Virus record (IMG/VR): IMGVR_UViG_3300049442_000166
DNA: 64,000 bases
From: an uncultured virus (IMG/VR IMGVR_UViG_3300049442_000166)
Lineage: Duplodnaviria; Heunggongvirae; Uroviricota; Caudoviricetes
Reading direction: 5' to 3' (one strand)
The notes under the pieces: model-generated
Told to the model about the DNA's origin: nothing
Databases searched by the model: none
What the model saw: the letters and a program-made list of their open reading frames with translations, nothing else
In this document: positions 17,423-32,570 of the stretch, piece by piece
How the letters are laid out: every line of letters starts with the position of its first letter
How positions within the stretch are numbered: position 1 is the stretch's first letter
Made by a program: the position numbers and the translations under genes

Positions 17423-19817
17423 TGAGTAAATCGATCTGATGTCTGAGTGCGGTCAGCTGGTGCTCGTACCAGCCCTGGTCCACCTCGGCGTCGGCCTTGC
17501 GCGCGTTGGCGAGATTGAGGATGGCCTGCGACAGCTCCTTGATCTCCGAGGCTTTGTCCTTGCCGCGCTTGATCGCCAGCTCGACCTGCTCGTGCTGCTG
17601 GCGGATATCGAGTTCCTTGTTGCGCAGGCCTGCCATCTGGCCGGCGATGTCGACCTGCTCCTTCTGCAGCTGCAGGTTCGCCGCCGCCTGCACCAGCTCG
17701 GCATTGGGTGGCGCCTGGGCGGCGATCAGCTTGTCGACCTGCTGAATGGCTGCGGCCTGCAGCGCCCTCAGGCGGATCTCGCGCCCGTCGAAGAACGGGT
17801 CAGACGCGAACTGCAAGAGGAAATTAGCCTGCGCCATCTGCTGGGTGTCGGTGACCATGTCCGGATCGCTGACGGGTTCCGCGCCAGAACCCCGCAGATA
17901 GTCTGATCTCTGTATCTGAAAGTATTCTGATCCGATACGAAATCCTGCTTCGTCAGGAAGGTACAGCCGATTGAGCCTAAATAGCTTGTCGAAGTCCTGT
18001 CGTAAACTCCTGTGTATACGTTTGAATATGGCATTGAATACCTTCAGTCCCTGCTGGATAACCGCTAGGCCGAGGATGCCTGGGACGTTCGCACCGGGCA
18101 GCTGGCCCTGCAGAACTTCCCTGATGCTACCTACATCTTTGGCTGCTTCCACTAAGAACTGCAGCAGCTGGAACAGCACCGGGTTGGGGCCCGGCATCTC
18201 AAGCGGTACTAAGTTTTCCCGCAGCGTGCGGCCCTGCGTGGTGACCACCTTGTATTCGCCGGTCATGAACCGCACAGAACCGGCGTTGATCGACACGCCG
18301 CCACCGATGAAGCCACCGCCCGCGATCTGCAGGTGACCGGCGTCGAACATCTGGTTGATGGTGGTGTTGACCGCCGCGTTGAGCGGATACATCAGGCTGC
18401 CGAAGCCCAGGTCGTATGACCCGCCGTCGGGGTTCGGGATGAAGCCGTACTTGGTGAAGTAGTCGATCTGACGGATCTCAGAGACCTCGCCTTCTTCGGT
18501 GGCGTCGATGCAGTCCTGGTCGAAGCCCACCGTGATGCGGGCCAGTTTGCCGCTGTCCTTGGCGAACGTGACGATGACCGGTTCGTCGTAACCGTCGTCG
18601 TCGAGATCGTAGCGACGGTGCTGTTCGCAGAAGGTGACCGGCGCCTGCTCGTCCTCGGAGGTGTCGGCGTTGCGGCCATAGCCCTCGTCGCCGTAGTCGA
18701 GCCACAGGCCGGAGCGGATGTTGCTCTCGATCTCCCACGGGTAGAAGTCGATCAGCTCCGTCTTGCGCGGGGCGGCATCAAAGCTCTTGGCCTTGTAGTT
18801 CACGCACAGGCGCAGGGCCGAGACGATCTCGCTGACGTTCCGCCTTTGCTTCGGGTCGAAGTAGTTCTTCCTGAACATCGTGCCGGCGATCGCCACGGTG
18901 ATCAGCAGCCGATCGGTCTGCTCCTCCCACTCCGGCATCTCGGTGAGCAGCTGCCAGGACATATGCCGGCCGATGCGGTCAGCGCGGGTCTGTTTGGACC
19001 CTGGCGGCACGATCCACAGTGCCTTGCCACCGGGACCGATCGCCTGCCCGCCTGGGCCTTGTTGTGGACCCTGTCCGCCCTGGCCGGGTTGTGGTGGCAT
19101 TGGGGGTGCCCCTGGCGGTGCCCCTGGAGGGGGTCCGGCCATGCCGCCAGGGGCTGCGCCCCCAGGTGGCCCGAGTGAGGGTGGGCCGCCGGGTCCGGGT
19201 TGTCCGGGTGGTCCGCCCGGCATCATGCCGGGCTGCGGTGGGGGTGCCATCAGCGGCACGCCGCGGTCGTCGCCGACCACCTTGCCTTTGACGACGTTGC
19301 TGCCCTGCACGATCGCCGGATACGCCCTGGCGTTGAACTGCAGCGCGGCGACGGTGATCAGTGGGAAGCAGACGTTGGAGGCGTTCGGCCAGGGATAGGT
19401 CTTCGGCTCGACGACCTGCAGCGCGAAGGCCATCCACTCGCCGTACCTCTGTTTCCAATCCGCCCGCGTCTCCTCATCGAGTTCGTATTCCCGCTTCGCT
19501 TGGTCGGCGAGGCGTTGGCGCTCGCCGTCCTCGATCTCGTCGGCAATATTCTTGCGCACGATCCACCTAGCGAACCGTCGCACATGCTGAGGTTGCAACA
19601 GCGGCCGGCGGTCGGCTTGGTCGGTCTTGGGGTCGGCGAGGGACTGGTCGGGCGCTGGTGGGCGGAGCGGCAGGATGTCAGCGGATTTTAGCGGCGCCTC
19701 AGGCTCATCCGGCGGCGGCCCCTGCATAGTCTGGCCATCGTCAGGCGGCGGCGGTTGCTGCGCGTCCTGATCTGGCGGTAGTGGTCCCGTCGGAATGGCG
19801 CTGAGCGCGGCACTCAT
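17241..19817 (-). CDS. Portal protein
   Basis: KTYPWPNASNV..PLI..AA.QF.ARAY, GTMFRKNYFD; follows terL; C-terminal coiled coil. Confidence 0.85.
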   Translation of the reverse strand: MSAALSAIPTGPLPPDQDAQQPPPPDDGQTMQGPPPDEPEAPLKSADILPLRPPAPDQSLADPKTDQADRRPLLQPQHVRRFARWIVRKNIADEIEDGERQRLADQAKREYELDEETRADWKQRYGEWMAFALQVVEPKTYPWPNASNVCFPLITVAALQFNARAYPAIVQGSNVVKGKVVGDDRGVPLMAPPPQPGMMPGGPPGQPGPGGPPSLGPPGGAAPGGMAGPPPGAPPGAPPMPPQPGQGGQGPQQGPGGQAIGPGGKALWIVPPGSKQTRADRIGRHMSWQLLTEMPEWEEQTDRLLITVAIAGTMFRKNYFDPKQRRNVSEIVSALRLCVNYKAKSFDAAPRKTELIDFYPWEIESNIRSGLWLDYGDEGYGRNADTSEDEQAPVTFCEQHRRYDLDDDGYDEPVIVTFAKDSGKLARITVGFDQDCIDATEEGEVSEIRQIDYFTKYGFIPNPDGGSYDLGFGSLMYPLNAAVNTTINQMFDAGHLQIAGGGFIGGGVSINAGSVRFMTGEYKVVTTQGRTLRENLVPLEMPGPNPVLFQLLQFLVEAAKDVGSIREVLQGQLPGANVPGILGLAVIQQGLKVFNAIFKRIHRSLRQDFDKLFRLNRLYLPDEAGFRIGSEYFQIQRSDYLRGSGAEPVSDPDMVTDTQQMAQANFLLQFASDPFFDGREIRLRALQAAAIQQVDKLIAAQAPPNAELVQAAANLQLQKEQVDIAGQMAGLRNKELDIRQQHEQVELAIKRGKDKASEIKELSQAILNLANARKADAEVDQGWYEHQLTALRHQIDLLNVVTDTGPAGEGGGSSGGGGGAAPPGLAGSIAGGLQSMAAPPGNGAGAGMAGGLPGQPPA

Positions 19818-19850
19818 GGCTATATGTAGAGGCGCGCGAGCGGCCGAAAG

Positions 19851-20105
19851 TCAACCGGTGGTCGTTCCCCGTTCGGTCCAGCTCCCGCACCAATAATCGG
19901 CGCGCACCACCGGGAAGGTGGAGAAGGGGCGCAGTTCCATGGATGTTCCCAGCTTCGATGGCATGGGGATGAGGAAGGCGGTCGGGGGATTGCGTCGGCA
20001 GTTGAGGTCGCCCGCGGGATCTTTCCAGCTGTAGCGGCAGGTCGCGCAAGCTTGGTCCAGCATGCGAGCGACCACGTCGCGGGGAACGATTAAGGTGGAA
20101 GACAT
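19851..20105 (-). CDS. Small Cys-rich hypothetical protein
   Basis: CATCRY...CRRNPP...FPVV..DYWCG. Confidence 0.6.
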   Translation of the reverse strand: MSSTLIVPRDVVARMLDQACATCRYSWKDPAGDLNCRRNPPTAFLIPMPSKLGTSMELRPFSTFPVVRADYWCGSWTERGTTTG

Positions 20106-20158
20106 GGAGGGCAGTCTATACCGGAGGTAGCATCCGGCATCTACCTAGACCGCCCTCC
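20106..20158 (-). ncRNA. Structured element 1 (outer stem plus a-b-a'-b' core)
   Basis: ggagggcagtcta/tagaccgccctcc; taccgga/tccggca; ggtag/ctacc. Confidence 0.7.
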
Positions 20159-20615
20159 CGCTCTACGACGTCGGCACACTCGCCCGCATCGGCTACGCTC
20201 TGAAGGCTCGGCACTCTCTCGCTACCCGGCTCGCTCGGCTATCATGGCACGCTCGCGGTTGATCGGCTCGCTCACGGGCTTCGGCACTCTCTCGCTGATC
20301 GGCTCGCTCTCTCTATGCGGCACTCTCGCGGATAGCGGCTCGCTCCTGGGGCTCGGCACTCTCGCTCGTAGCGGCTCCGCTCCTGCTCTACGGCACTCTC
20401 CTGAACTTCGGCTCGCTCGCTGGGTTCGGCACTCTCGCAGGTTTCGGCTCGCTCAACGGGTTCGGCACACTCCGAGACCTAGGCTCGCTCCCGGCAATCG
20501 GCACTCTCTGACCATTCGGCTCAGCGGGGATGCGGCACCGACGTCAGCAATCGGTGGCTGACCCGCACCCCCACCCGCTCCAGTTCGAAGGCACTCTCCC
20601 GCAGCTCGGCTGCTC
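20159..20615 (-). repeat. TIGR-like dual-repeat guide array 1 (11 units, including embedded element 2 at 20522-20575)
   Basis: Plus strand alternates CGGCACTCTC and CGGCTCGCTC with variable 8-nt spacers, 36-nt period. Confidence 0.9.
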
Positions 20616-22128
20616 AATAACCAGTGGTCTTTGAGCGGGTACGATCCTGCACCAGCCTGGAATTAAGTTCAATCATGTCGTTATCGATCTGGTCACCGCG
20701 CCATTGCATCGAGGGGCCGAACAAGCGGGTGGCGGTGTACTGGAGCGCGTCGGCCGGGTGTGAATGCAGGTTCTTCTCGGGCTTGTCAGCCCAGCGCTCG
20801 GTGCCGGCGATCTGGATCCGCCGGTAGTGATACCCACCCTGCAGCGCCCGCCGCAGCCGGCCGCACCTGGGATGGAGGTTGAACGCCGGCCGTCCATCAT
20901 CATCAAACTGGCGGAGCTGCTTGCGGATGCACTCCTGGCGGATCTGCGGGGACTGCAGGCCGGGCTCGATCATGATGCCCTTGGTGTGTAGGATATCGAA
21001 ACAAGTCCGCTCATCAGTCTCGGCGCGGCTGTTGCCAGCCGGGTCACCGACGTCGATGAACTCGGTGTCGGGGAAATGCTGGCTGGAGTGGCTCAGCACC
21101 TGATCGCTGAAGCGGTCGACGCCCATCGTATCGGCGCACAGCTCGTCGACGATCTTCCATTGGCCCGTCGCGGCCAGCTGGCTGAAGATGCAGCTGGGCG
21201 TCAGGCCGAAGTCCCACCCGCGGTGCACCGGCAAGCGCGGGTCGGTGCGGGGTGCACGCTTCTCGTCGGCGCCGCCAGGGCAGTGGACGTTGTCATGATA
21301 TTCAGGGAAGACCGGGCGACCCTCGGTGACGAAGCCATATTCACCGCGACAATATACTTTCACCCATTCATCAGTTTTTCCGATGGCCAGCCGCTGCCAG
21401 TAGCCGGGCGACTGGTTCTTGGCGTTCTCCGCGCTGGCCGACAGGCCGGATGGCTGCTTGAATATCCGACAGTATTTTGCAACGGTCATGCCGGGCATGA
21501 ACGCGGCGAGACCTTCGACCGCCTCGGTGTGGTCCATCTTCTCGAAGAACCGGTACCATGCGCTATCGGCATCGGGCGGGTTGGTGTCGAGGATGATGCC
21601 GGCCCAGGTAGCACCACCGCCGTCTCGCTTGGCCGGGTAGCGATCGACGCGGCCCTGCAGGGCGTCGATGATCGTCCAGGGTACCTCGCGCGCCTCGTTC
21701 ACCCAGGCGCCTGTGAGGTCGAGTGACAGCAGGTTCCGAACGTGGTCTGGCCGGTCGAGCGCGCGGAAGAGCAACTCGATTTCGGCACACTTCTTATCGC
21801 CGTCAGCAATGAGTTTGTTCAGCACATACTCGTGCTCGGTCGCCCGCCATTGCCCCATCATAGGGTACGGAAACCATTGGTGCACCGTTCTGATTGTCGT
21901 GTCGTTGAGCTGGCGATAGGTGTTCCTGATCACCGCCCAACGGCTGCGCCGGATGCCATCGAGGCCGGGCTTCTGCTTCAGGCCACGCTGGACGATGTCC
22001 CATAGGCAGCCGCTGCTCTTGCCGCTGCCGAACGGCCCCATCAACCCCCTGATGAACGCGTCATCATTGAGGAAGGCGTGGATCGTCGGGACATCGCCGG
22101 TGTTGTAATCGAGCGTGTGTTTGACCAT
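20614..22128 (-). CDS. terL: Terminase large subunit
   Basis: Walker A GPFGSGKS, Walker B AWVNE, DTNPP, RGWDFG, HPADALQY. Confidence 0.95.
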   Translation of the reverse strand: MVKHTLDYNTGDVPTIHAFLNDDAFIRGLMGPFGSGKSSGCLWDIVQRGLKQKPGLDGIRRSRWAVIRNTYRQLNDTTIRTVHQWFPYPMMGQWRATEHEYVLNKLIADGDKKCAEIELLFRALDRPDHVRNLLSLDLTGAWVNEAREVPWTIIDALQGRVDRYPAKRDGGGATWAGIILDTNPPDADSAWYRFFEKMDHTEAVEGLAAFMPGMTVAKYCRIFKQPSGLSASAENAKNQSPGYWQRLAIGKTDEWVKVYCRGEYGFVTEGRPVFPEYHDNVHCPGGADEKRAPRTDPRLPVHRGWDFGLTPSCIFSQLAATGQWKIVDELCADTMGVDRFSDQVLSHSSQHFPDTEFIDVGDPAGNSRAETDERTCFDILHTKGIMIEPGLQSPQIRQECIRKQLRQFDDDGRPAFNLHPRCGRLRRALQGGYHYRRIQIAGTERWADKPEKNLHSHPADALQYTATRLFGPSMQWRGDQIDNDMIELNSRLVQDRTRSKTTGY

Positions 22129-22133
22129 GGAAT

Positions 22134-22196
22134 GGGAGGAAAGCGCATCGGCGACCTGACTGACAAGGTCACCGGTCAGTCATGCGCTCTCCTCCC
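22134..22196 (-). ncRNA. Structured element 3
   Basis: gggaggaaagcgcat/atgcgctctcctccc; cggcgacct/aggtcaccg; gactgac/gtcagtc. Confidence 0.75.
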
Positions 22197-22772
22197 CGCT
22201 CCCGTACCCCGGCACTCTCGAACCACTCGGCTCGCTCAGCGTGTACGGCACTCTCGTGGCGCCCGGCTCGCTCGCCTAATCCGGCACTCTCACTTGTCCA
22301 GGCTCGCTCTCTACACACGGCACACTCATCTACACCGGCTCACTCGTCGCTCTTGGCACTCTCAGCTGGCCCGGCTCGCTCACTACTGGCGGCACTCTCT
22401 CGGATAGCGGCTCGCTCACTTGGTTCGGCACTCTCCATCGTAGCGGCTCGCTCCTGTTCTACGGCACTCTCAGCTGCGACGGCTCGCTCCTGATGTTCGG
22501 CACTCTCTCGCAGCACGGCTCGCTCTACCTTATCGGCGCTCTCCATTATCACGGCTCGCTCCAAGGGCGCGGCACTCTCACCAACGCCGGCTCGCTCCTG
22601 TGGCTCGGCACTCTCTTCATGGTCGGCTCGCTCTTCCTGCTCGGCACCCTCGTGCCATTCGGCTCGCTCGCGCTTCTCGGCACTCTCAGGGATACCGGCT
22701 CGCTCCTACGCCACGGCATACTCAACGTAGTCGGCTCGCTCGGCTATCACGGCACACTCCTAGCCCGCGGCT
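22197..22772 (-). repeat. TIGR-like array 2 (16 units)
   Basis: Exactly 16 x 36 nt; same dual repeats, variable spacers. Confidence 0.92.
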
Positions 22773-23004
22773 AGTCGGTGACCTTGTTCGCATCTTGGAG
22801 CGGCCCGGGCAACTCGGCTTCATGCTCCTGCGTCCACCGCTTCGGCGGCTTCCCGCCGTGGTTTAGATAAATATAACGCTCCCTGGTCACCGGAATGCCT
22901 TGCTTCAGCATATAGTCCAGGGTGATGTCGTTGTGGCGATGGGCCTCCAGCTCCGCCGGGCTCACCACCCCCTCCTCACCCTCACTCCTCGGCGTCGTCG
23001 CCAT
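22771..23004 (-). CDS. Hypothetical protein
   Basis: 77 aa; its TAG stop overlaps the first repeat of array 2. Confidence 0.5.
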   Translation of the reverse strand: MATTPRSEGEEGVVSPAELEAHRHNDITLDYMLKQGIPVTRERYIYLNHGGKPPKRWTQEHEAELPGPLQDANKVTD

Positions 23005-25030
23005 AGTCCTGTCCTCCAGCCCAACTGGGTGGTTTTAGCCCACCCGCATGAGACACGATAGCCTCTCGTCTCTCATCAGGGGTTTTACCACGATGCGCCC
23101 CCTTGTTGCGCCACATATCTGCAACTTCACCGACGAATGTCTTGTTGCGCTTCTGTTCCGGTGAGAACAGGCCGCGCACGCCCTCCCAGGTCACGCTCTG
23201 CAGCTCCCGGGGCATGATGCCGAGATCGGCAGCCGCCCGCCGGTAGGCCTCGGCATACAGCCCATACATCCCCTTGTTGCCCAGCGTGGCGCTGTCCCCG
23301 GCCTGGGGCAGCCGCGGCGCGTTGGGATCCCCCTTCGGCTGCTTCGGGTTGGTGCCCAGGCCGTGGGCGACCTCCATGGCGCCGGCCCCGAGCGGCCGGA
23401 GCAGCGCCGCGGCAATCGCGTGGGTGTCGATCGTGACATCGTGGCCATGCCCTGGCGCGATGATGTTGTTGTAAAAGTTACGCACCTTGTGGGCGCCGCC
23501 CATCAGCCGGGACACGGTCGGCAGGTCGGCGTTCTGCAGCGCCGCCATCGCTTTGCCGATCTCGCTGAAGCTGCCCCAGGTCACGTCCCGTGACCGCGAC
23601 GCCTCCTCAAGCTGACCCTTGCGCTTGCCTTTGGTGTAGTACTTCGCCGGGATCATCGAGGTGCCGGCCTCGCCGCCCTCCGGGGTAATGATCTTGTAGC
23701 TGCGCGGGTTGTGCGCCTCGTCGTGCCAGCGGGCGAACACGGCGCGCTCGAAGGGGTCGGTGAGCGCTGACATCGGCGTCTCGCGGAACTTCTGCTGCAG
23801 CCCCCTCAGCCTCTCGATCATCTCCGGCTCGCCCTTCCAGGGCTTCCCCGTCGCCTGTGCCTTGGCCTGCTGCTTCGCCGCCTCCGTCTCCAGCTGGGTG
23901 ATGTACTTCGCAGAGTAGTCCTGCATCTTGTCCGTCATCGTCCAGTTGGCACCGAGCTTGTGTGCCTCGAACGCCTTCTTGGCGAGATGGACGTTCTGAT
24001 ACCAATCCTTCTGCGGGCTGAGTGCGGCCAGCACAGCGGCGGCGACGTGCGGCTGGACGCCGTATTCCTTGGCCAGACTGTGGGCGATGCGGTTGGCGCC
24101 GCTGTACCACTGCTTGGCGCGCTCGACGATGCCGGGGCCGATCGGGCCCTTCTCGTCGTTCATCTTGTTGTACAACCACTTGAGGTTGTCCTTGGCGTGG
24201 TTGATGAACGCCTCGTTGATCTTGGTCGGGTCATCGGTGCGCAAGTGCTCGAACCCCGGGTAATGCTCCTTGATGATCTTGGCGTTCTTGGCCTTCTGGT
24301 CGGTCGCCCGGTTCATGCTGTCGTAGTCGCTCGACAGGTCGGCGGTGCCGTGCGCGTCGATGCCGGCTGCACGCTGCGCCGGCTCGGACGGGATGCGGGT
24401 GGAGATGCGCAGATCGCTGCGGCTGCGCTCCGGCTCCTGATCGGGCGATGTCGGCGCCTCGGGTTCGGCTCCTGGCGCAGGTGCAGCACCCTGAGCACCG
24501 CCGGCCTGGGCCAGCGCCTCGCTGCCGTAGGTGGGGCCGCCCATCGTCTGGCCCGCCAGTCGCTGCGCCACCGCACCACGTTGGCGGACCAGCCCGCCGC
24601 TGGTGGGATCCTGCTGGAACTGGGTGACGTCAGCCGGACCACCTGGGGGCGCGCCAGGAGGCGCCATGGGCGCTGCGGCTGGCACCGGCACCGACATAGC
24701 GGCGGCACTGGGCCCCGGCGCCGCGGCACGCAGCTGGGCAACCCCTGAGGACGGCGCTATGCCCATCGGCGGGGGCGACGGCGGCATCTCCATAGCCGGT
24801 GGCGTCATTACACCGGGCGTCGGCGATGGCTGCGCCAGCTGCGCCAGCGACAGCGCGGCACGCGGCGGCTGGATCGGCGCCAACCCTGGCGCGCGCGGCG
24901 TCTGCCACAGCTGGTCTGTGAGCTTCGCCAGCGGGTCAAGCTGCTTCTGATATTTCGCCAACGGATTGGTTTCGAGATCCCCACCGGGATCGATCTGTGG
25001 GTAGGGGATACCCCCGAGGCGACCGCTCAT
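22982..25030 (-). CDS. Protein with Pro-rich N-terminus and a putative HhH-GPD/glycosylase-like DNA-acting domain
   Basis: WY..A...AAVLAALSPQ..W..N, KVRNFYNNI, VTIDTHA, Y..AY..AA...G..P.ELQ..TW. Confidence 0.5.
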   Translation of the reverse strand: MSGRLGGIPYPQIDPGGDLETNPLAKYQKQLDPLAKLTDQLWQTPRAPGLAPIQPPRAALSLAQLAQPSPTPGVMTPPAMEMPPSPPPMGIAPSSGVAQLRAAAPGPSAAAMSVPVPAAAPMAPPGAPPGGPADVTQFQQDPTSGGLVRQRGAVAQRLAGQTMGGPTYGSEALAQAGGAQGAAPAPGAEPEAPTSPDQEPERSRSDLRISTRIPSEPAQRAAGIDAHGTADLSSDYDSMNRATDQKAKNAKIIKEHYPGFEHLRTDDPTKINEAFINHAKDNLKWLYNKMNDEKGPIGPGIVERAKQWYSGANRIAHSLAKEYGVQPHVAAAVLAALSPQKDWYQNVHLAKKAFEAHKLGANWTMTDKMQDYSAKYITQLETEAAKQQAKAQATGKPWKGEPEMIERLRGLQQKFRETPMSALTDPFERAVFARWHDEAHNPRSYKIITPEGGEAGTSMIPAKYYTKGKRKGQLEEASRSRDVTWGSFSEIGKAMAALQNADLPTVSRLMGGAHKVRNFYNNIIAPGHGHDVTIDTHAIAAALLRPLGAGAMEVAHGLGTNPKQPKGDPNAPRLPQAGDSATLGNKGMYGLYAEAYRRAAADLGIMPRELQSVTWEGVRGLFSPEQKRNKTFVGEVADMWRNKGAHRGKTPDERREAIVSHAGGLKPPSWAGGQDYGDDAEE

Positions 25031-26802
25031 GGCGTGCCTTTCTTGTGGTCGCGCAGTGCGTCAGCACCGGCATCGATCATCGCCGGCATACCGTTACGCT
25101 TGACGATGTTGATCGTGCGCGGATCGAACACGACGTAGTTGTGGCTGCCATGGCCGGAGGCTCGACTGCCAGCATCGAGGTAGCGGATGCCCGGGATACC
25201 GGCGTCGAGTAGCCGCCGCGCCGCCGCTTCATCACCCCCTCTACCACCAGCCATGTGCGTGTAAATGTGTTTGCCCTGATCCGTGTCGCCATAGCCGTGA
25301 TCGAGCAGCCTGTCCCGCACATACGAATGATGCTGACCAAGCGGCTTATCCCAGTCGAGCATGTGGTCCGGATGAATGTGCAGCTCCGACTGATACAGTT
25401 GGCCGGTGCTTTGGGCGAAGTCATCCGGCTTCAGTTTACCTGCTGCCGCGTGCACACCGAGATAGAACTGGCCACGCCGCTGGTCCGCCTCCCACGCGTC
25501 CGTTCTCCCGAACCCATGCCGATGCGGCGAATATGACATCTGCGCCGCCGCGTCAGCGTACTCATCCTCCACCTTCTCGATCGCCTGCCGTGCCGTCATC
25601 CCCTGGTCCTGCATGAATTCGGCGACCTGATGCACCGCCATCTTGTGCGGATCGACCCCGCTCCACACCGGCACCGCACCCTGGTGGGTCACACCACCAG
25701 ACAGGTCATCGCGGTAGCTCTTCGCGATGCTTTCATTGCCAGCCTGATAAATGCCCTTGCCGTAGGCCTGGGCGCCCTCGCCCGTGCCGAGCTTGCTGAG
25801 GTTGAACTCACCGAGTGGGTTGGCGCGCGTCGGCGCGAACTCGTGTGGCGTGCCGTGGTGCACCGTCAGCGGTTGCGCCATGCGGATCAGCTGGCCTGAG
25901 CCATACGCCTCTGGCCCGGGTGCGGCGGGCACGTTTCCGCGGCTCTCGACGTGCGCCAGGGCGGCGTGCTGCGCCGCGGTGCCCGCGTCATAGTCAGCGA
26001 CATGGGGGCCGTCAGTAGGCTGATACGAGCCCGCCTGGGGGTCGTGTGCCATGAACACGACATCGGGCGTGCCACCCTTGAATTCCCTGAACGTGTCACG
26101 CATCCAGCCCTTCGGCTTGTGCTCCTCGCTCCAGGGGATGCGCGCGACGGCACGGAAGCCGTTCTGTGCGTAAATATGTGGCAGCACCGTATCGAACGCA
26201 TCAAGCCGCCGACCGCCGTTCTGTTTGGCAAGGTCGAGCATCGATCTGGTGACGTTACGGTATGGCGCCTTCGGATGTTTGAACACCGATACGATGTCAT
26301 CGCCCTTCAGCGCGAAGCCGGCATCACCCTCCTTGGTCGCGAACATCCGCATCCCGCGGTAGTCCTCGGGAGGATATTGGGTGACCGCGGCGCCGGCCGG
26401 GTGAGCCTTCTTGGCGACACCGATTACATGGTGAAAGGCATCGGCACCCTCTGGGTGCAGCTCATGATACGTCGGAGCGTCGGCGTTGGAGTAGCCCTGC
26501 TTCGGCGACCAGACGGTCTTGGTGACGCCAGAGAGACCTGTGCCTAGACCCAGTGCCGAAGATGCTTCAGGGCTTCTGCCTTCGTAATTCCCCTCGACTG
26601 CACCAGCTCGTCCGCCAGCCTGTCCAACAGCTTGTCCGCCTCCCGCTGGATCTCCGGGGTTGAGCGGTAACTGTGCTGGGGCTGGTGTTGCGACTGGTCC
26701 TGGGGTGGTTGTTTGGCCATATCGATCTCCGAGCGATCCTAGCGCATTGGTGCTAGGCGTCGCCAGCGGCGGGTAGGGGATGCTGCCAAGCGTCGCGGAC
26801 AT
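25027..26802 (-). CDS. Polyvalent-type protein: GNAT-like plus ADP-ribosyltransferase-like domains
   Basis: DIVSVF...GGRRLDAFDT.LP.IY...GF; VHHGT...GTGEGAQAYG.GIY...GIPGIRY...NYVVFDP; start re-called at MSATLG. Confidence 0.6.
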   Translation of the reverse strand: MSATLGSIPYPPLATPSTNALGSLGDRYGQTTTPGPVATPAPAQLPLNPGDPAGGGQAVGQAGGRAGAVEGNYEGRSPEASSALGLGTGLSGVTKTVWSPKQGYSNADAPTYHELHPEGADAFHHVIGVAKKAHPAGAAVTQYPPEDYRGMRMFATKEGDAGFALKGDDIVSVFKHPKAPYRNVTRSMLDLAKQNGGRRLDAFDTVLPHIYAQNGFRAVARIPWSEEHKPKGWMRDTFREFKGGTPDVVFMAHDPQAGSYQPTDGPHVADYDAGTAAQHAALAHVESRGNVPAAPGPEAYGSGQLIRMAQPLTVHHGTPHEFAPTRANPLGEFNLSKLGTGEGAQAYGKGIYQAGNESIAKSYRDDLSGGVTHQGAVPVWSGVDPHKMAVHQVAEFMQDQGMTARQAIEKVEDEYADAAAQMSYSPHRHGFGRTDAWEADQRRGQFYLGVHAAAGKLKPDDFAQSTGQLYQSELHIHPDHMLDWDKPLGQHHSYVRDRLLDHGYGDTDQGKHIYTHMAGGRGGDEAAARRLLDAGIPGIRYLDAGSRASGHGSHNYVVFDPRTINIVKRNGMPAMIDAGADALRDHKKGTP

Positions 26803-26805
26803 GAT

Positions 26806-26858
26806 GGTGGGAAGCATACACCACGACGGGCTCGTGGCGACCCGTTATGCTCCCCACC
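26806..26858 (-). ncRNA. Structured element 4
   Basis: ggtgggaagcata/tatgctccccacc; caccacga/tcgtggcg; cgggc/acccg. Confidence 0.7.
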
Positions 26859-27254
26859 CGCTCGGCCACGTCGGTACTCTCAATCGAGACGGCTCGCTCG
26901 ACTGTATCGGCACTCTCGCATCGGTCGGCTCGCTCACTTTGGTCGGCACTCTCTGCTGCTCAGGCTCGCTCAGCCTTGTCGGCACACTCTTCGAATACGG
27001 CTCGCTCGTTCAGATCGGCACTCTCGCACATCACGGCTCGCTCTCTCGTATCGGCACTCTCGTATACGACGGCTCGCTCAGGTGTAACGGCACTCTCAAC
27101 ATCCCAGGCTCGCTCCCTCATCACGGCTCTCTCAGTGAAGACGGCTCGCTCGTTCTTTACGGCACCCTCAGATCGAGCGGCTCGCTCCGCTATGTCGGCA
27201 CTCTCTCACAGCACGGCTCGCTCTGGACCGACGGCACACTCACGATAGACGGCC
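26859..27254 (-). repeat. TIGR-like array 3 (11 units), downstream of the tas gene
   Basis: 11 x 36 nt dual-repeat units. Confidence 0.92.
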
Positions 27255-27321
27255 CACCTGCGGGCGTGCGTGGTGTTTGCCTCGTTTAAGACCCAGGCCC
27301 ATTAGCTCCGGTCCCCGCAGG

Positions 27322-28512
27322 TCACCGCGGCTTCCGCGGCCGCGATGTCGGACCACGTTGCGCCTTGGCCTTCGCCGCGGCAAACGCAGGTATCAGCTCG
27401 ATGTTGGGGATCTCCAGCCGGTGCACATGTCCTGGGATATTCTCGATGACGTACGGATGCGGCGGCAACTCTTTGTAATGATCCCAATACATCACCTCGT
27501 GGAGATGCGCGAGGAAAAGCTTCACTGCGCGACGTTGCGCTCGCAGATGCAGACGGGCCGGCGGCAACATGCCTTGCTGATACCACTTATACGCGTCGGT
27601 CTTCGGATCAAACCGCTTCAGCTCCAGGCTGAGCTTCGCCTGATCGGCGTAGAGCTGACGGCTGTTGCGCTCGGTCTCCCAGTCCTTCCGCGCCTTGTAC
27701 AGCTTGCCGTAGACGTCGTCCGGCCTGTTAGATACTTTGACAAAGCTCTCGCCGATCAGAAAGCACAGCCGCTTCAGGCTGGCGTTCCACGGGCGCTTCT
27801 GGCCCTTGCCCCAGATCGAGGTCGGATCCAGCCCGGCGAAGCGCCAGATATGCCCCACGGTCGGTGCGCGTTGGATGTCGATGTTGGCCAGCAGCCCGGC
27901 GGCGATCACCGGTCCGATGCCCTTGATGCTGCGCGCCCAGATGCCGGCCTCATCGGACAGGCTGTAGATGTCGAGTGTGCCGCGGATCTGCTTTTCGAGG
28001 GTCTCCTCCTGCACGAACAACCACTCCAGAACCTCGTGTGGCTCGGGGACTGGATCTGCCACTGGCTGCGGCTGCGCCTCCTCATCGTCCTCGTCGCCCT
28101 CGTGAGCGTCGTCGGTGCGCTGCTGCTTCGGCTCCGCTAAAGTCCTCACTTGGTGTTTGGTGCGGATGCGGTTCTCCTGCATAGAATAATACGCATCGAC
28201 GAGGAACCGCGCCTCGATCTTGCCGAGGGTGCGCGACGCCTGCTTCAGATCCTTGGTTAACTTCTGGATCGGTGTCAGCAGGCTGGGATCGGCGGTAGAT
28301 GTCAGCAGCTGGTGCAAGGCATCGAGCCGCTGGAACAGGCTGGCGATCAGGTCACCGTCCGGCGGTTGGTTGCGGCCATGGCGCAGCAGGCTGAGCGCGT
28401 CACCCACAAGCTCGACGGGTGTCATCGCCAGGAAGTCTTCGGGGCCCATCGGCTCGGTCGTGATCGGCGGTGGCATGTCCTTGGCTGGGCGGTATGTTTC
28501 TGGCCGTTTCAT
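27322..28512 (-). CDS. Tas-like Nop/IS110-related RNA-binding protein with no nuclease domain (TasA-like)
   Basis: Coiled coil (YY.MQENRIR), SIKGIGPVIAAGLL, IWRFAGLDP, RPWNASLKRLC, YGKLY..RK, LHLRAQRRAVKLFL; no DEDD RuvC or HNH motif; flanked by arrays; AAGGAG RBS before MKRPETY. Confidence 0.85.
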   Translation of the reverse strand: MKRPETYRPAKDMPPPITTEPMGPEDFLAMTPVELVGDALSLLRHGRNQPPDGDLIASLFQRLDALHQLLTSTADPSLLTPIQKLTKDLKQASRTLGKIEARFLVDAYYSMQENRIRTKHQVRTLAEPKQQRTDDAHEGDEDDEEAQPQPVADPVPEPHEVLEWLFVQEETLEKQIRGTLDIYSLSDEAGIWARSIKGIGPVIAAGLLANIDIQRAPTVGHIWRFAGLDPTSIWGKGQKRPWNASLKRLCFLIGESFVKVSNRPDDVYGKLYKARKDWETERNSRQLYADQAKLSLELKRFDPKTDAYKWYQQGMLPPARLHLRAQRRAVKLFLAHLHEVMYWDHYKELPPHPYVIENIPGHVHRLEIPNIELIPAFAAAKAKAQRGPTSRPRKPR

Positions 28513-28534
28513 GGGTTCTCCTTTGGGGTGGTTC

Positions 28535-28786
28535 CACTCAATGGTTGCGGCACTCTCGGGGAACACGGTTCACTCTGCAGTTGCGGCACTCTCGTTGCTC
28601 ACGGTTCGCTCAATACCCTCGGCACACTCTCCTCATCCGGCTCGCTCTAGCTTCTCGGTACTCTCAAGGACTGCGGCTCGCTCCTATCTATCGGCACGCT
28701 CCATGGAAACGGCTCGCTCATGTCACACGGCACTCTCTTTCCAAGCGGCTCGCTCACCAAGCCCGGCACTCTCCGAAGCTACGGCT
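28535..28786 (-). repeat. TIGR-like array 4 (7 units), directly upstream of the tas gene
   Basis: 7 x 36 nt; repeats degenerate toward the gene. Confidence 0.9.
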
Positions 28787-28888
28787 TGGTCTTTGCTACC
28801 GCGGCCGGCGCAGCAAAGTCAAGATGGTTAATCAGGAGACGGTACTGGCCGGTAGAAGGATGCAATGAAGGCAGGAAAGGAAGGCAGG

Positions 28889-29038
28889 TCAGCGGTGCAG
28901 CACGGCCTGGAAGATCACCCAGGCCATTGCCAGGGAGCCGGCGCTGGCCAGGACGTAGGCGTAGGCCCGGTCGTAGCGCCGCCGTGGTCTGGGTGCTTGG
29001 TTGTAGCGGACGGTAGAGCGGCGACGGCGCAGCCGCAT
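28889..29038 (-). CDS. Small basic membrane peptide (49 aa, not in the ORF track)
   Basis: MRLRRRRSTVRY...AYVLASAGSLAMAWVIFQAVLHR*; starts 5 nt after element 5. Confidence 0.4.
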   Translation of the reverse strand: MRLRRRRSTVRYNQAPRPRRRYDRAYAYVLASAGSLAMAWVIFQAVLHR

Positions 29039-29043
29039 CAGCT

Positions 29044-29098
29044 CAGCGGGGATATGGTACCGGCGTTAGCAAACCGGCAGCTGACCCATACCCCCGCC
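29044..29098 (-). ncRNA. Structured element 5
   Basis: ggggatatgg/ccatacccc; taccgg/ccggca; gttagc/gctgac. Confidence 0.7.
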
Positions 29099-29602
29099 CG
29101 CTCTTGAGTGTCGGCACTCTCTCTTGACGCGGCTCGCTCGGCATCCGTGGCACTCTCACACATGGCGGCTCGCTCAGCTCTCCCGGCACTCTCGGTTGGT
29201 GTGGCTCGCTCATTGGCTACGGCACTCTCGCCCACGCGGCTCGCTCGTCGATGTCGGCACTCTCGCGGTTTATGGCTCGCTCGGCCAGCTCGGCACACTC
29301 TCGGACTTCGGCTCGCTCAGCCGGTTCGGCACTCTCCAGGGACACGGCTCGCTCTCAAGGATCGGCACTCTCGCTGGATGCGGCTGCGCTCTTATCTATC
29401 GGCACCCTCATTTCATTGCGGCTGCGCTCATGTTGCTCGGCACCCTCGCAACTGGCGGCTCGCTCTGTCTGCTTGGCACTCTCATAGATCTCGGCTCGCT
29501 CGCGCCAGTCGGCACACTCAACCTTCCCGGCTCGCTCACCTTCCTGGCACTCTCGTGGAGGCGGCTCGCTCATCCATTTCGGCACTCTCGGACGGCCCGG
29601 CT
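29099..29602 (-). repeat. TIGR-like array 5 (14 units)
   Basis: Dual repeats; a few 7- or 9-nt spacers and CGGCTGCGCTC repeat variants. Confidence 0.9.
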
Positions 29603-29735
29603 AACGCGCCGATGCTATCGCCGTCCCACCGGGTGCGCCATGCCGCTGCCATCATGGAACGCCGTGCCACCACAGTTGTGGCCGGCGAGCTGGTTCCTGG
29701 CGGCCTTCTTGATCGCCCGCAACAGGCTGCCGGGC

Positions 29736-29984
29736 TTAGACTGGCGCGCTGCCGGCTGGCGGGCTTGCTGGCCCCGCTGGCCCTGGCCCACCGCCGCCGA
29801 GCCCGGCGAGTAGCTGCCCGAGCCCACCGCCATTGCCTTGGGCACCATCCCCTGATTGATCACCGCCATTGGGTGGCTCCTCCATCGGCATCTGTTGCCG
29901 CCGCTTCTTGTGCTTGCGGTGCGCGTGCGGCCCCTCGGTGAACGCGGTCGGTGCGTCGGGGAAGGCTGTCGGGTCGTCGCTCAT
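29736..29984 (-). CDS. Gly/Pro-rich hypothetical protein
   Basis: GAGGAG RBS before MSDDPTAF. Confidence 0.4.
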   Translation of the reverse strand: MSDDPTAFPDAPTAFTEGPHAHRKHKKRRQQMPMEEPPNGGDQSGDGAQGNGGGLGQLLAGLGGGGPGPAGPASPPAGSAPV

Positions 29985-29994
29985 GTCTCGCTCC

Positions 29995-30420
29995 TCACGC
30001 CTCGCGCTGCGGCTCGTGCTCCCCCTCGGCCTGTGGCTCCTGCCACGCCGTCGGCACCTCCAGCGGATCTGGGCTGATCTCAGCCTCTGCCAGCGCCCGC
30101 TCGTCGGCGCTTGGCTCCTCAGCGACAACCGGTGCGCCCTCGACCATGGTCAGCCTGGGCACCGTCTCGGCGTCCTCCTGGAGCAGCCCATAGTCGGAGA
30201 TCAGACACGAGGTGATGCGGCTGTCGAGCGCGCCACCATCGTGCGCCAGGAGCAGTCGCGTCTTCACCTGCTCGGCGAGGTTGGGCGCATCGGGATCCCC
30301 AGCCAGTGAGATCGTGGCACCGAAGTAGCCGCCGTCGAGCATGAGCATCTGCACCAACGGGACCGGGACGATGTCTTGCGGCTCTAGCTCTTCGAGGCTG
30401 TCGGTGTAGGTGTCTGACAT
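29995..30420 (-). CDS. Acidic hypothetical protein, paralogous to the N-terminus of 10862-11815
   Basis: G.Y..ATI and L.SR..S.L.S..GL.Q..A shared. Confidence 0.55.
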   Translation of the reverse strand: MSDTYTDSLEELEPQDIVPVPLVQMLMLDGGYFGATISLAGDPDAPNLAEQVKTRLLLAHDGGALDSRITSCLISDYGLLQEDAETVPRLTMVEGAPVVAEEPSADERALAEAEISPDPLEVPTAWQEPQAEGEHEPQREA

Positions 30421-30584
30421 GGTTCTTCCCCCTCATCGTCCGGTGGCGGCCAGTCGATCTCGCCCTTGCCCTTACATAGCCAGCAATCCTCACGTTGGAG
30501 GCAGGCTGAACTGACGAGGCGCACTATGACATACTGCCGGCCATTGCAATTAGGGCAGATGCAGCGGAAGAAGCCGACGGTCAT
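30384..30584 (-). CDS. Small zinc-finger protein (DnaJ-type CxxCxG)
   Basis: CPNCNG...CWLCKGKG. Confidence 0.5.
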   Translation of the reverse strand: MTVGFFRCICPNCNGRQYVIVRLVSSACLQREDCWLCKGKGEIDWPPPDDEGEEPCQTPTPTASKS

Positions 30585-30881
30585 CGCCGGCTCTTGGCGC
30601 CTATGTTCGCCGGCTGGCGATCAGGCTGCACGCCCTCCTGGGTGGCGGCGTAGTTTGGGGCGTAGCCGGCCTGGAACGCCGGGTGGTCAGCACTGCTGCC
30701 CTTGATCTTGGGCTCGCTATTCTTCACCTCGATCAGGGCTGCCCAGGCCTCGTGCGGCAGATGCTCCGGCCATCCCGCCTGTTGGGCGTCCCACAGCGTG
30801 TGGGTGTCCGTTTCGATGTGAGGATAACCTAGCGCGTACTTCGGGGCGGGGGTGGCGGAGAGCAGCGCCTCGCTCCCCGCC

Positions 30882-31334
30882 CGCTCCGCGATCCCGGTAC
30901 TCTCTGGCTCTGCGGCTCGCTTCGGTGTCTCGGCACTCTCAAGTCTGTCGGCTCGCTCACTGTGCCCGGCACTCTCATGTGTAGCGGCCCGCTCAGTCGC
31001 CTCGGCACTCTCTGGCTCGTTGGCTCGCTCAGCGGTATCGGCACTCTCACAAGTTTCGGCTCGCTCGGACAGCTCGGCACTCTCTCGATCCACGGCTCGC
31101 TCATCTGTATCGGTACGCTCGCGAGTGTCGGCTCGCTCAGGTTTCTCGGCACTCTCTTCTGCCACGGCTGCGCTCATCTGTGTCGGCACCCTCACTGCGC
31201 TCGGCTCGCTCGGTTATCACGGCACTCTCTCTCGAAGCGGCTACAACGGGGACGATGCACTGGCGTCAGCAAACCAGTGGCTGACCATCGTCCCCGCCCG
31301 CTCGGCGGCCCCGGCACTCTTGCACATCACGGCC
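30882..31334 (-). repeat. TIGR-like array 6 (11 units; element 7 embedded at 31243-31298, short element 6 at 30843-30881)
   Basis: Dual repeats with 36-nt period; element 7 has perfect ggggacgatg/catcgtcccc, cactgg/ccagtg, gtcagc/gctgac. Confidence 0.9.
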
Positions 31335-31439
31335 GTATTCATTGTCCTACAGGATCAACCAGAAGAACAGTCCCCATAGCGGTAGCGACAGCGTGACGCC
31401 GACCGCAATCCCCTTGGCCACAGCCAGGTGATCATCCCC

Positions 31440-31628
31440 TCACCGAGTTCCTGCTCGTTTGATCCACCGGTCACACCACCCTCCCGGTTTGATATCTCCT
31501 GCAACTAGGTGGCACGCATTAGGCGCGCGCCAATGGACGCACTTGTCACACGTCTCAGACTGTAGCTCCGCCTTTGGCGTGTAGCGCGTGTCGCGTTTCG
31601 TCAGCTGCCTGATCGGCCGCTGCGCCAC
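31440..31628 (-). CDS. HiPIP-like small Fe-S protein
   Basis: CDKCVHW...CHLVAGDIKPGGWCDRW four-Cys pattern. Confidence 0.6.
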   Translation of the reverse strand: MAQRPIRQLTKRDTRYTPKAELQSETCDKCVHWRAPNACHLVAGDIKPGGWCDRWIKRAGTR

Positions 31629-31877: not shown

Positions 31878-32021
31878 TCACTTGCCCTTCCGCTTAGGCT
31901 TACGCCTGGATTTGTCTAGTGCAATTGCCACAGCTTGCTTCTGCGGAAATTTACCAGTAGACACCAACTCACTGACGTTCTTGCTTATCGTCTTCTGGCT
32001 CGATCCGCTCTTTAATGGCAT
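31878..32021 (-). CDS. Small basic phage protein
   Basis: [20 protein letters not shown]...QKQAVAIAL, a common phage peptide near packaging genes. Confidence 0.65.
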
Positions 32022-32024
32022 CCC

Positions 32025-32570
32025 ATGCGCTCCTGTCGGCACTGCGGCACTGAGATCAGAACTCGTGGCGCTCGGCTCTATTGCTCCTTGCGATGCAAAG
32101 GTCTCGCCGAACGAGTGCAGGTTGACGCGATCTGTGCCATCTGCGGCGGTCCATTTACGCACATTTCCTCGCGATGCAACAAGGCCAAGTACTGCTCCAG
32201 GGTTTGCTATTACCGATCGATGATCGGACGGGGGAGAACCCATTACACATGCCGCCACTGCGGCAAGGCCTTCTTTGGGTCGGCTTCGCATAAGCGTGTC
32301 TATTGCAGCCGGGCGTGTAACGCTAAGGAACGTCTCGCCACATGGCGGCCTTCGTTCATCACAGTTCGTAAGCAGTTAGTGAGACGTGGCCGATTGCTCC
32401 GGTGTGATCAGTGTGGGTTCGATGAAGAGCCCCGCATACTTGGCGTCCACCACAAGGACGAGAACAAGCGAAACAATGAGCTGATCAATCTCGCCGTACT
32501 CTGTCCTAACTGCCACTCCAGGGAGCATCTCAAGCATATCCCTCAGGGATACAGGCCTCAGGCGTCATAG
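32025..32570 (+). CDS. HNH endonuclease with zinc-ribbon repeats
   Basis: Repeated Cxx[16 protein letters not shown]...NL..LCPNCH..EH. Confidence 0.85.

Follow-up and report, generated by a model that had tools for sequence, protein, structure and literature searches.

The window analysed here, a 64,000-nucleotide stretch of an uncultured Caudoviricetes virus (IMG/VR record IMGVR_UViG_3300049442_000166), encodes a single tas gene on its minus strand (27322..28512), with six TIGR (tandem interspaced guide RNA) arrays around it on the same strand. Here, we focused on this gene, on its arrays and on a helical hairpin at the N-terminus of its product. The open reading frame (ORF) begins with an ATG at 28512, ends with a stop codon at 27322-27324 and encodes 396 amino acids (aa), and an AAGGAG ribosome-binding site was read from the sequence 5 bases upstream of the ATG (28518..28523, minus strand). 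An alternative GTG start at 28566 is unlikely, because reading from it would begin inside the upstream guide array. From the ORF, its start and its match to the NCBIfam model NF052498, we called a tas gene of the TasA type, with a Nop domain and without a nuclease.

The Tas protein and its TIGR arrays

When the protein was searched against Pfam, Transposase_20 alone was returned, which is the C-terminal, Nop-like part of IS110 (E 9e-6). The equivalog model NF052498, named 'TIGR-Tas system RNA-guided endonuclease', matched residues 101-341 with 194.9 bits against a cut-off of 100 (E 1.6e-57), while the NCBIfam IS110 model NF033542 reached 28.2 bits against a cut-off of 140 and thus fails. A sequence search of the PDB returned TaTasR (9mty, E 6.8e-9) and SpTasH (21kl, E 3.8e-5). 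The family is large, with 4,426 proteins at E <=0.001 among the 8,000 candidates scored and 2,562 representative clusters in an all-against-library search. The automatic names around this family mislead: the NCBI model speaks of an 'RNA-guided endonuclease' though there is no nuclease domain, and PHROGs and several source annotations speak of a transposase.

An AlphaFold2 model built on an alignment of 85 sequences had a mean predicted local distance difference test score (pLDDT) of 89.3 and a predicted template modelling score (pTM) of 0.77, and it consists of helices only, with zero strands. All 10 Foldseek matches in the PDB at E <=0.001 were TasH or TasR chains, with the recombinases IS621 and ISCro4 ranking after them. 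VIA-align placed model residues 94-374 on residues 64-309 of the TasH chain 9w04_B (Z 18.9, root-mean-square deviation (rmsd) 3.6, 234 aligned) and model residues 99-372 on residues 112-322 of the TasR chain 9mty_B (Z 17.0, rmsd 2.5, 193 aligned), against Z ~12.4 for the IS110-family recombinases IS621 and ISCro4. Within the aligned range lie two predicted coiled-coil helices (98-126 and 160-185). Residues 81-126 (28135..28272, minus strand), delimited by a 25-row alignment (A1), the model and the structural alignment, comprise a short helix (86-94) and coiled-coil helix 1 (98-126); an ordinary TasA begins near this part, and helix 86-94 already belongs to the ordinary TasA. The model and the structural alignment place coiled-coil helix 2 at residues 160-186 (27955..28035, minus strand), and Pfam and VIA-align place the Nop RNA-binding core, with its GIGPV helix-hairpin-helix and C-terminal loop, at residues 187-375 (27388..27954, minus strand).

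The protein is a TasA-type, nuclease-free member of the described TIGR-Tas family. The original prediction had proposed a Tas protein free of RuvC, HNH and DEDD domains, and its absence of nucleases is borne out by the single Pfam match, the all-helical model and the generic nature of the N-terminal matches described below. Its further proposal of a TasA-like, RNA-guided DNA binder also fits the sequence and the model: NF052498, the structural matches to TasH and TasR, the dual-repeat arrays on the same strand and the missing nuclease all point to such a function. An ordinary IS110 element, named there as a possible contrary outcome, was not what the IS110 model score indicated, IS110-type ends as such not having been looked for.

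We mapped the arrays with Tandem Repeats Finder and a motif walk. All six lie on the minus strand, as tas does, and together they hold 132 repeats and 57 clean edge-A-loop-B-edge units with a period of 36. Array 4 (28548..28791, 14 repeats) is directly upstream of tas and array 3 (26872..27241, 21 repeats) is 80 bases downstream of it. Array 1 (20172..20508, 18 repeats) lies between the terminase and portal genes, array 2 (22210..22759, 31 repeats) between the DUF7178 and terminase genes, and arrays 5 (29094..29589, 26 repeats) and 6 (30866..31321, 22 repeats, with gaps) follow at higher coordinates. In each of them, 10-nt repeats of two types, GAGAGUGCCG and GAGCGAGCCG, alternate around 8-nt spacers. 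The arrays open and close with the GAGAGUGCCG type; therefore, by the rule given in the available text of PMC12045711, GAGAGUGCCG is the edge repeat. The two types have GAG...CCG ends in common, and shared repeat ends are expected for RNA that binds a symmetric dimer, as that text also describes. In related viral loci, 36 on the tas strand was the commonest repeat distance in 43 of the 47 loci listed (80 analysed), with like repeats (GAGCGAGCC...), although about 9 of those array-bearing loci had counts too low to weigh.

From 20172 to 31321, the arrays (~60 guide units) thus alternate on one strand with late genes, the portal and large terminase genes among them, with an array on either side of the terminase. 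A scan of 19800-31600 yielded 0 promoter-like sites; terminator-like sites numbered 9, where 6.3 were expected in the same interval, a chance level that gives no information on transcription units. A 10-mer inside tas (28450-28459), one mismatch from the loop repeat, was taken as chance, because it is out of phase with array 4 and about ten near-matches occur elsewhere on the strand. In a 204-aa ORF (30581-31195, minus strand), the first ~110 codons read through array 6 without a stop (ESA...ERA repeats), and its relatives match all or much of the ORF, at 63% over 204 residues in the related contigs L002/L004 and at 47-52% in L059 and L038. In L002 (9719-11110) and L003 (2086-3507), too, the array upstream of tas is open, and its frame is that of tas; two Tas relatives (P0059, P0061) carry long C-terminal extensions resembling translated arrays (SEP...RAP).

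We then aligned a profile of the family with SpTasH. In this profile alignment, Y354 (27451-27453, minus strand) and H362 (27427-27429, minus strand), both in the C-terminal loop of the Nop core, fall on SpTasH Y289 and H296, which are catalytic for metal-independent pre-tigRNA processing according to the available text of PMC13421893. H362 does not vary in A1, and its conservation is at least 90% in an 85-row alignment (A2).

The N-terminal hairpin, the acidic tip and the basic tail

The residues in front of the ordinary TasA part fall into two segments. Residues 1-22 (28447..28512, minus strand) form a disordered, proline-rich and slightly basic head (pLDDT 55-67, isoelectric point (pI) 8.3, 6 prolines), which in relatives consists of a Lys/Arg/Gly-rich stretch followed by a proline run. 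Residues 23-80 (28273..28446, minus strand) form a clade-specific acidic helical hairpin (helices 24-28, 32-45 and 53-74) with a block pLDDT of 88-92 within the full model, a pI of 4.4, zero Cys and two His; residues 1-101 as a whole are likewise without cysteine. We compared the length of this region in 269 fetched proteins (query included), 187 of which carry both anchor motifs. The median number of residues before RFLVDAYY is 34 in these 187 relatives and 101 in the window protein, so that the window protein has ~67 extra residues, and 18 of the 187 have 100-119 residues there. Ordinary relatives are ~275-295 aa long and their starts align near residue 73-80. The extra N-terminus that had been predicted is therefore present and helical, but shorter than the ~90 residues first estimated.

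To this region the solved nuclease domains offer no counterpart. The structural alignments begin at model residue 94-99, leaving TasH 1-63 (HNH) and TasR 1-111 (RuvC) unmatched, and the head and hairpin occupy the position of these domains. When residues 1-101 were folded alone (19 sequences), the same helices appeared with a mean pLDDT of 69 and a block pLDDT of 76-86 over residues 21-70. With residues 1-101, Pfam gave zero matches even when E values of up to 10 were allowed. Compared with 48,161 PDB representatives, the N-terminal part alone gave zero chains at Z >=8; the best matches were hairpins of the ribosomal protein uL29 type (Z 7.6, rmsd 1.7, 55 aligned), a value in the noise range stated by the structure-search tool, which rates the arrangement as common. 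A word-based protein-database search with residues 1-80, which has little reach, returned 4 matches, all of them close Tas relatives. Since the N-terminal part alone yields generic helical-hairpin matches at a best Z of 7.6, no cryptic nuclease fold was found in the model, and the same holds for a recombinase fold; either would have spoken against the TasA assignment in the original prediction.

We further studied whether the hairpin is under selection, using the relatives L002 and L003 as reference pair (89% identical, synonymous divergence (dS) ~0.7-0.9). Against these, the ratio of nonsynonymous to synonymous divergence (dN/dS) was 0.08-0.11 for residues 23-80, close in range to 0.06 for the core, with 0.18-0.25 for the coiled-coil tip and at least 0.27 for the fast-evolving head. 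Against the distant L038 and L059, for which synonymous sites are near saturation, the values were 0.33-0.61 for the hairpin and ~0.2 for the core. The hairpin is a folded part of the protein and is under selection.

A quick maximum-likelihood tree built on the core only (85 rows, midpoint-rooted only) placed all 19 module-bearing rows, three of which have database gene calls that are cut short, in one group (support of 95 in the Shimodaira-Hasegawa-like approximate likelihood ratio test, SH-aLRT) nested among short TasAs. The nearest outgroup of this clade, P0035, has the disordered head only. The long form is confined to one syntenic group of viral contigs (L001-L004, L038, L050 and L059, plus L086 from a second scan). 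Judged from these sequence comparisons, the additions are real and clade-specific. Arrays with a period of 36 are alike in short- and long-form Tas loci, and because relatives without the hairpin have such like 36-nt arrays, guide binding probably does not require the hairpin. In a sister subgroup of the long form (P0010-P0021, P0035; L038, L050, L059), a further insert of ~70 residues follows LDPTS.W, a loop that corresponds to the DNA-splitting wedge of TasR; the window protein is without that insert.

A second addition lies at the tip of the coiled coil. Residues 127-159 (28036..28134, minus strand) form a disordered acidic insert with a pLDDT of 64-67 and 12 D/E against 2 K/R. The acidic loop that the original prediction placed in the coiled coil is indeed there: the run DDAHEGDEDDEE occupies residues 134-145 (28078-28113), inside this low-confidence segment between the two coiled-coil helices. 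DAYY and EPH lie 47 residues apart in the window protein and 20 in 111 of 168 relatives, corresponding to a 27-residue insert. Among tip segments of at least 14 residues, 27 of 29 are net negative, 2 are neutral and 0 are positive, the 29 including the query and an identical fragment (P0001), and longer tips recur across several Tas lineages. The available text of a 2026 preprint (10.64898/2026.09.09.750476) describes long tips in stem-loop Tas proteins and a compact core with minimal variation in the dual-repeat type. The acidic tip is a mild exception to this compact core and establishes no new principle.

At the other end of the protein, residues 376-396 (27325..27387, minus strand) form a basic tail with 7 K/R, no D/E and a pI of 12. 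In A1, the 14 long-form rows have 21-30 residues after HxH, 4-8 of them K/R, and the seven short rows without a long C-terminal extension have 12-21, of which 0-3 are K/R.

Neighbouring genes

The gene order in the long-form lineage is syntenic, running from tas through a 596-aa protein, a DUF7178 protein and a small ORF to terminase and portal, and one IMG/VR viral contig (L001) is 100% identical to the window over each gene compared. Between tas and terminase, the 596-aa protein (25027-26817, minus strand) has no Pfam or NCBIfam match and two weak PHROG matches, and among the seven lineage loci, L038 and L050 gave no match to it. Next to it, a 682-aa protein (22982-25030, minus strand) carries DUF7178 (E 1.8e-30) behind a Pro/Ala-rich front half; among the viral loci with its relatives, 33 of 39 are without tas in the available sequence and 6 have it. 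Both proteins resemble multi-domain proteins often found near phage packaging genes. Sequence searches of the PDB with the two neighbours gave nothing useful.

On the plus strand, a free-standing HNH endonuclease gene (32025-32570; Pfam HNH E 6.2e-5, phrog_1271 E 3e-22) overlaps a minus-strand ORF (31878-32291). It is present in L001 and absent from the other related contigs compared, and this distribution suggests that a mobile nuclease gene was inserted recently. Because it was found only in L001, whose compared genes are all identical to those of the window, we do not count it as part of the Tas system.

The original prediction had also proposed that Tas recruits an adjacent glycosylase-like or ART/GNAT protein. 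Gene linkage lends this no support: since the long-form Tas is restricted to one syntenic lineage, shared neighbours show common descent rather than partnership, and the DUF7178 relatives mostly occur without tas. A partnership of Tas with the adjacent proteins was therefore set aside. The ART/GNAT label goes back to an Atlas feature score of 0.79 between the 596-aa protein and phage clusters with ART-PolyVal and GNAT domains, which the tool rates as a lead only, and nothing was found among the neighbours that shows a glycosylase.

Proposed role and comparison with known systems

Domain content, fold, arrays and conservation were read from the sequences and models; the dimer, guide processing, DNA binding and repression are inferred by homology to the solved TasR, TasH and PlTasA complexes, and any role of the additions is likewise inferred. 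Two Tas copies would pair via the coiled coil (98-126, 160-185), and their Nop cores would hold the edge repeat GAGAGUGCCG and the loop repeat GAGCGAGCCG by their GAG...CCG ends. The loop with Tyr354 and His362 may cut long array transcripts into 36-nt guides, whose two 8-nt spacers would pair with opposite strands of a 16-bp site. Without cutting, the bound complex would block transcription or another DNA transaction. To this plan the clade adds a head that is Pro-rich and floppy, an acidic hairpin where the nuclease sits in TasH and TasR, an acidic disordered tip loop and a basic C-terminal tail; the hairpin might stabilise the dimer or modulate DNA binding through charge, and the acidic parts would compete with non-specific DNA or pair with the basic tail. 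That such a protein 'represses or blocks', in the words of the original prediction, is a reasonable default by homology to MbTasA and two dead TasRs, and it is not new. We consider it very probable that the window protein acts as the effector, of the nuclease-free TasA type, in a dual-repeat TIGR-Tas system of a phage, with its additions most likely structural or regulatory accessories; for the hairpin itself, too, such an accessory role is the most likely one.

Several points weigh against this proposal. Expression, guide processing, dimerisation and DNA binding of the window Tas are predictions, and the TasAs tested for repression or studied by cryo-electron microscopy (cryo-EM) are not from the dual-repeat clade, PlTasA being of the stem-loop type and the type of MbTasA unchecked. 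The position of Tyr354 varies among relatives between Y, F and W in A1, and TasR, which has W there, does not process guides alone according to the available text of PMC12045711; autonomous guide processing is therefore uncertain. The fall in block pLDDT from 88-92 to 76-86 when the N-terminal part is folded alone is the sole hint, from the models, that the hairpin packs on the core. The guides also failed to reveal targets. As target site we took spacer A with the reverse complement of spacer B behind it, 0-2 bp apart, a geometry based on the 8-nt 3' overhangs and on the rule for the cut in the available text of PMC12045711 rather than on a stated sequence. Spacers in the opposite order and pairs mis-paired by a shift served as controls. 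For the 57 guide units, 0 sites at <=1 mismatch were found in the window outside the arrays, and 12 at <=2 mismatches compared with 7, 5 and 6 in three controls. The 80 related viral loci gave 0 exact sites for the true units, and one control gave 2 exact sites there, one of them inside an array. No target could thus be named within the window and the 80 related contigs; public collections were not scanned, because a 16-mer matches there many times by chance.

The position of the hairpin raises the question of whether it acts as an adaptor, recruiting a phage or host protein to the site specified by the guide, so that TasA would be a platform for an effector in trans, much as Nop5 is for fibrillarin. 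In TasH, TasR and Nop5 the same N-terminal slot holds an effector domain (PMC12045711, available text), the acidic character of the hairpin makes it unlikely to bind DNA itself, and the hairpin is under purifying selection. We nevertheless regard the adaptor as improbable: no linked partner candidate emerged, as the neighbours are shared within one syntenic lineage only, the 596-aa protein lacks a match in L038 and L050, DUF7178 relatives are without tas in most loci, and the HNH gene occurs only in L001. A fuller version of this idea, equally doubtful, is that the hairpin docks an effector at the sites of any of the ~60 guides, while the acidic tip and the basic tail form a charge switch that gates DNA binding. 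If it were true, this TasA clade would be a natural guide-directed recruitment platform and not a simple roadblock.

That the same slot holds HNH or RuvC elsewhere, and that dead RuvC domains are known in TasR (10.64898/2026.09.09.750476, available text), could also suggest that the N-terminal region is the decayed remnant of such a domain, the protein being a degenerate TasH or TasR. The ~58 folded residues, however, are all helical, without a strand and without Cys, they drew nothing from Pfam and only the uL29-like hairpin in the noise range from the structure search, and the clade is nested among short TasAs with a head-only protein (P0035) as nearest outgroup, all of which makes a decayed nuclease very improbable. 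Still less credible, to a nearly negligible degree, is an IS110-family transposase or its remnant in place of a guide-array effector, even though Pfam and PHROG names say 'transposase' and some source annotations read IS116/IS110/IS902. Pfam returned no DEDD domain, the Tas model passes its cut-off where the IS110 model falls far below its own, IS621 and ISCro4 score Z ~12.4 against 17-19 for Tas proteins, and the gene is flanked by TIGR arrays.

Among TIGR effectors, nuclease-free TasA is the most common but also the least understood. The clade shows that the N-terminal slot, which holds HNH or RuvC elsewhere, can accommodate a small, selected and non-catalytic module. It also reveals, among dual-repeat TasAs, variation at the tip of the coiled coil, with inserts that are recurrently acidic. 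The hairpin, tip and tail are defined parts with which to ask what tunes DNA binding, and a phage locus with many guides suits target hunting once the host is identified. The TasA-type RNA-guided binder is already published as a class. The window protein is a clade-specific variant; by itself it adds a variant to a known family and not a new mechanism.

With the IS110-family recombinases IS621 and ISCro4, the window protein shares the Nop-like RNA-binding C-terminal domain seen in the Z ~12.4 matches and in Transposase_20, but it is without their DEDD domain, and arrays of short guides stand in place of a bridge RNA. The archaeal Nop5 of box C/D ribonucleoproteins (RNPs) offers a functional analogy, as a coiled-coil Nop dimer on a two-guide RNA would be common to both; the N-terminal domain of Nop5 recruits fibrillarin (PMC12045711, available text). 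The presumed target of the window protein is DNA rather than RNA, and no N-terminal match to Nop5 in sequence or fold turned up, no direct comparison with Nop5 having been made. Closer are SpTasH of Salicola phage CGphi29 (9w03, 9w04, 21kl) and TaTasR (9mty), whose fold agrees with that of the window protein from the coiled coil through to the C-terminal loop (Z 17-19). SpTasH also shares the 8-nt spacers and the Tyr/His processing residues. Both proteins cut DNA, with an HNH domain (1-63) in SpTasH and a RuvC domain (1-111) in TaTasR, whereas the window protein has the head and hairpin there.

The closest known systems are the TasAs themselves. In the available text of Faure et al. 2025 (PMC12045711), TasA is the solo-Nop Tas, the commonest effector, and binds 36-nt guides. 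The preprint 10.64898/2026.09.09.750476 reports, in its available text, guide-dependent DNA binding and reversible repression by MbTasA and two dead TasRs, by MbTasA without cutting, and describes the N-terminal extensions of TasAs of stem-loop clades as disordered; the available text of 10.64898/2026.08.11.744272 presents cryo-EM structures of PlTasA as a coiled-coil dimer with an unresolved N-terminal loop. Within these published descriptions we found no folded non-nuclease N-terminal module for a dual-repeat TasA, although their supplements or TIGRSafari may cover such a module. The window protein is like FpTasA, PlTasA and MbTasA in its Nop core and coiled coil, in having no nuclease domain, in its arrays on the same strand and in its phage origin, and by analogy it would likewise bind DNA under the direction of its guides without cutting. 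It differs from them, as far as published descriptions rather than sequences allow the comparison, in ~67 extra N-terminal residues that include a folded acidic hairpin, in a 27-residue acidic insert at the coiled-coil tip and in a basic tail.

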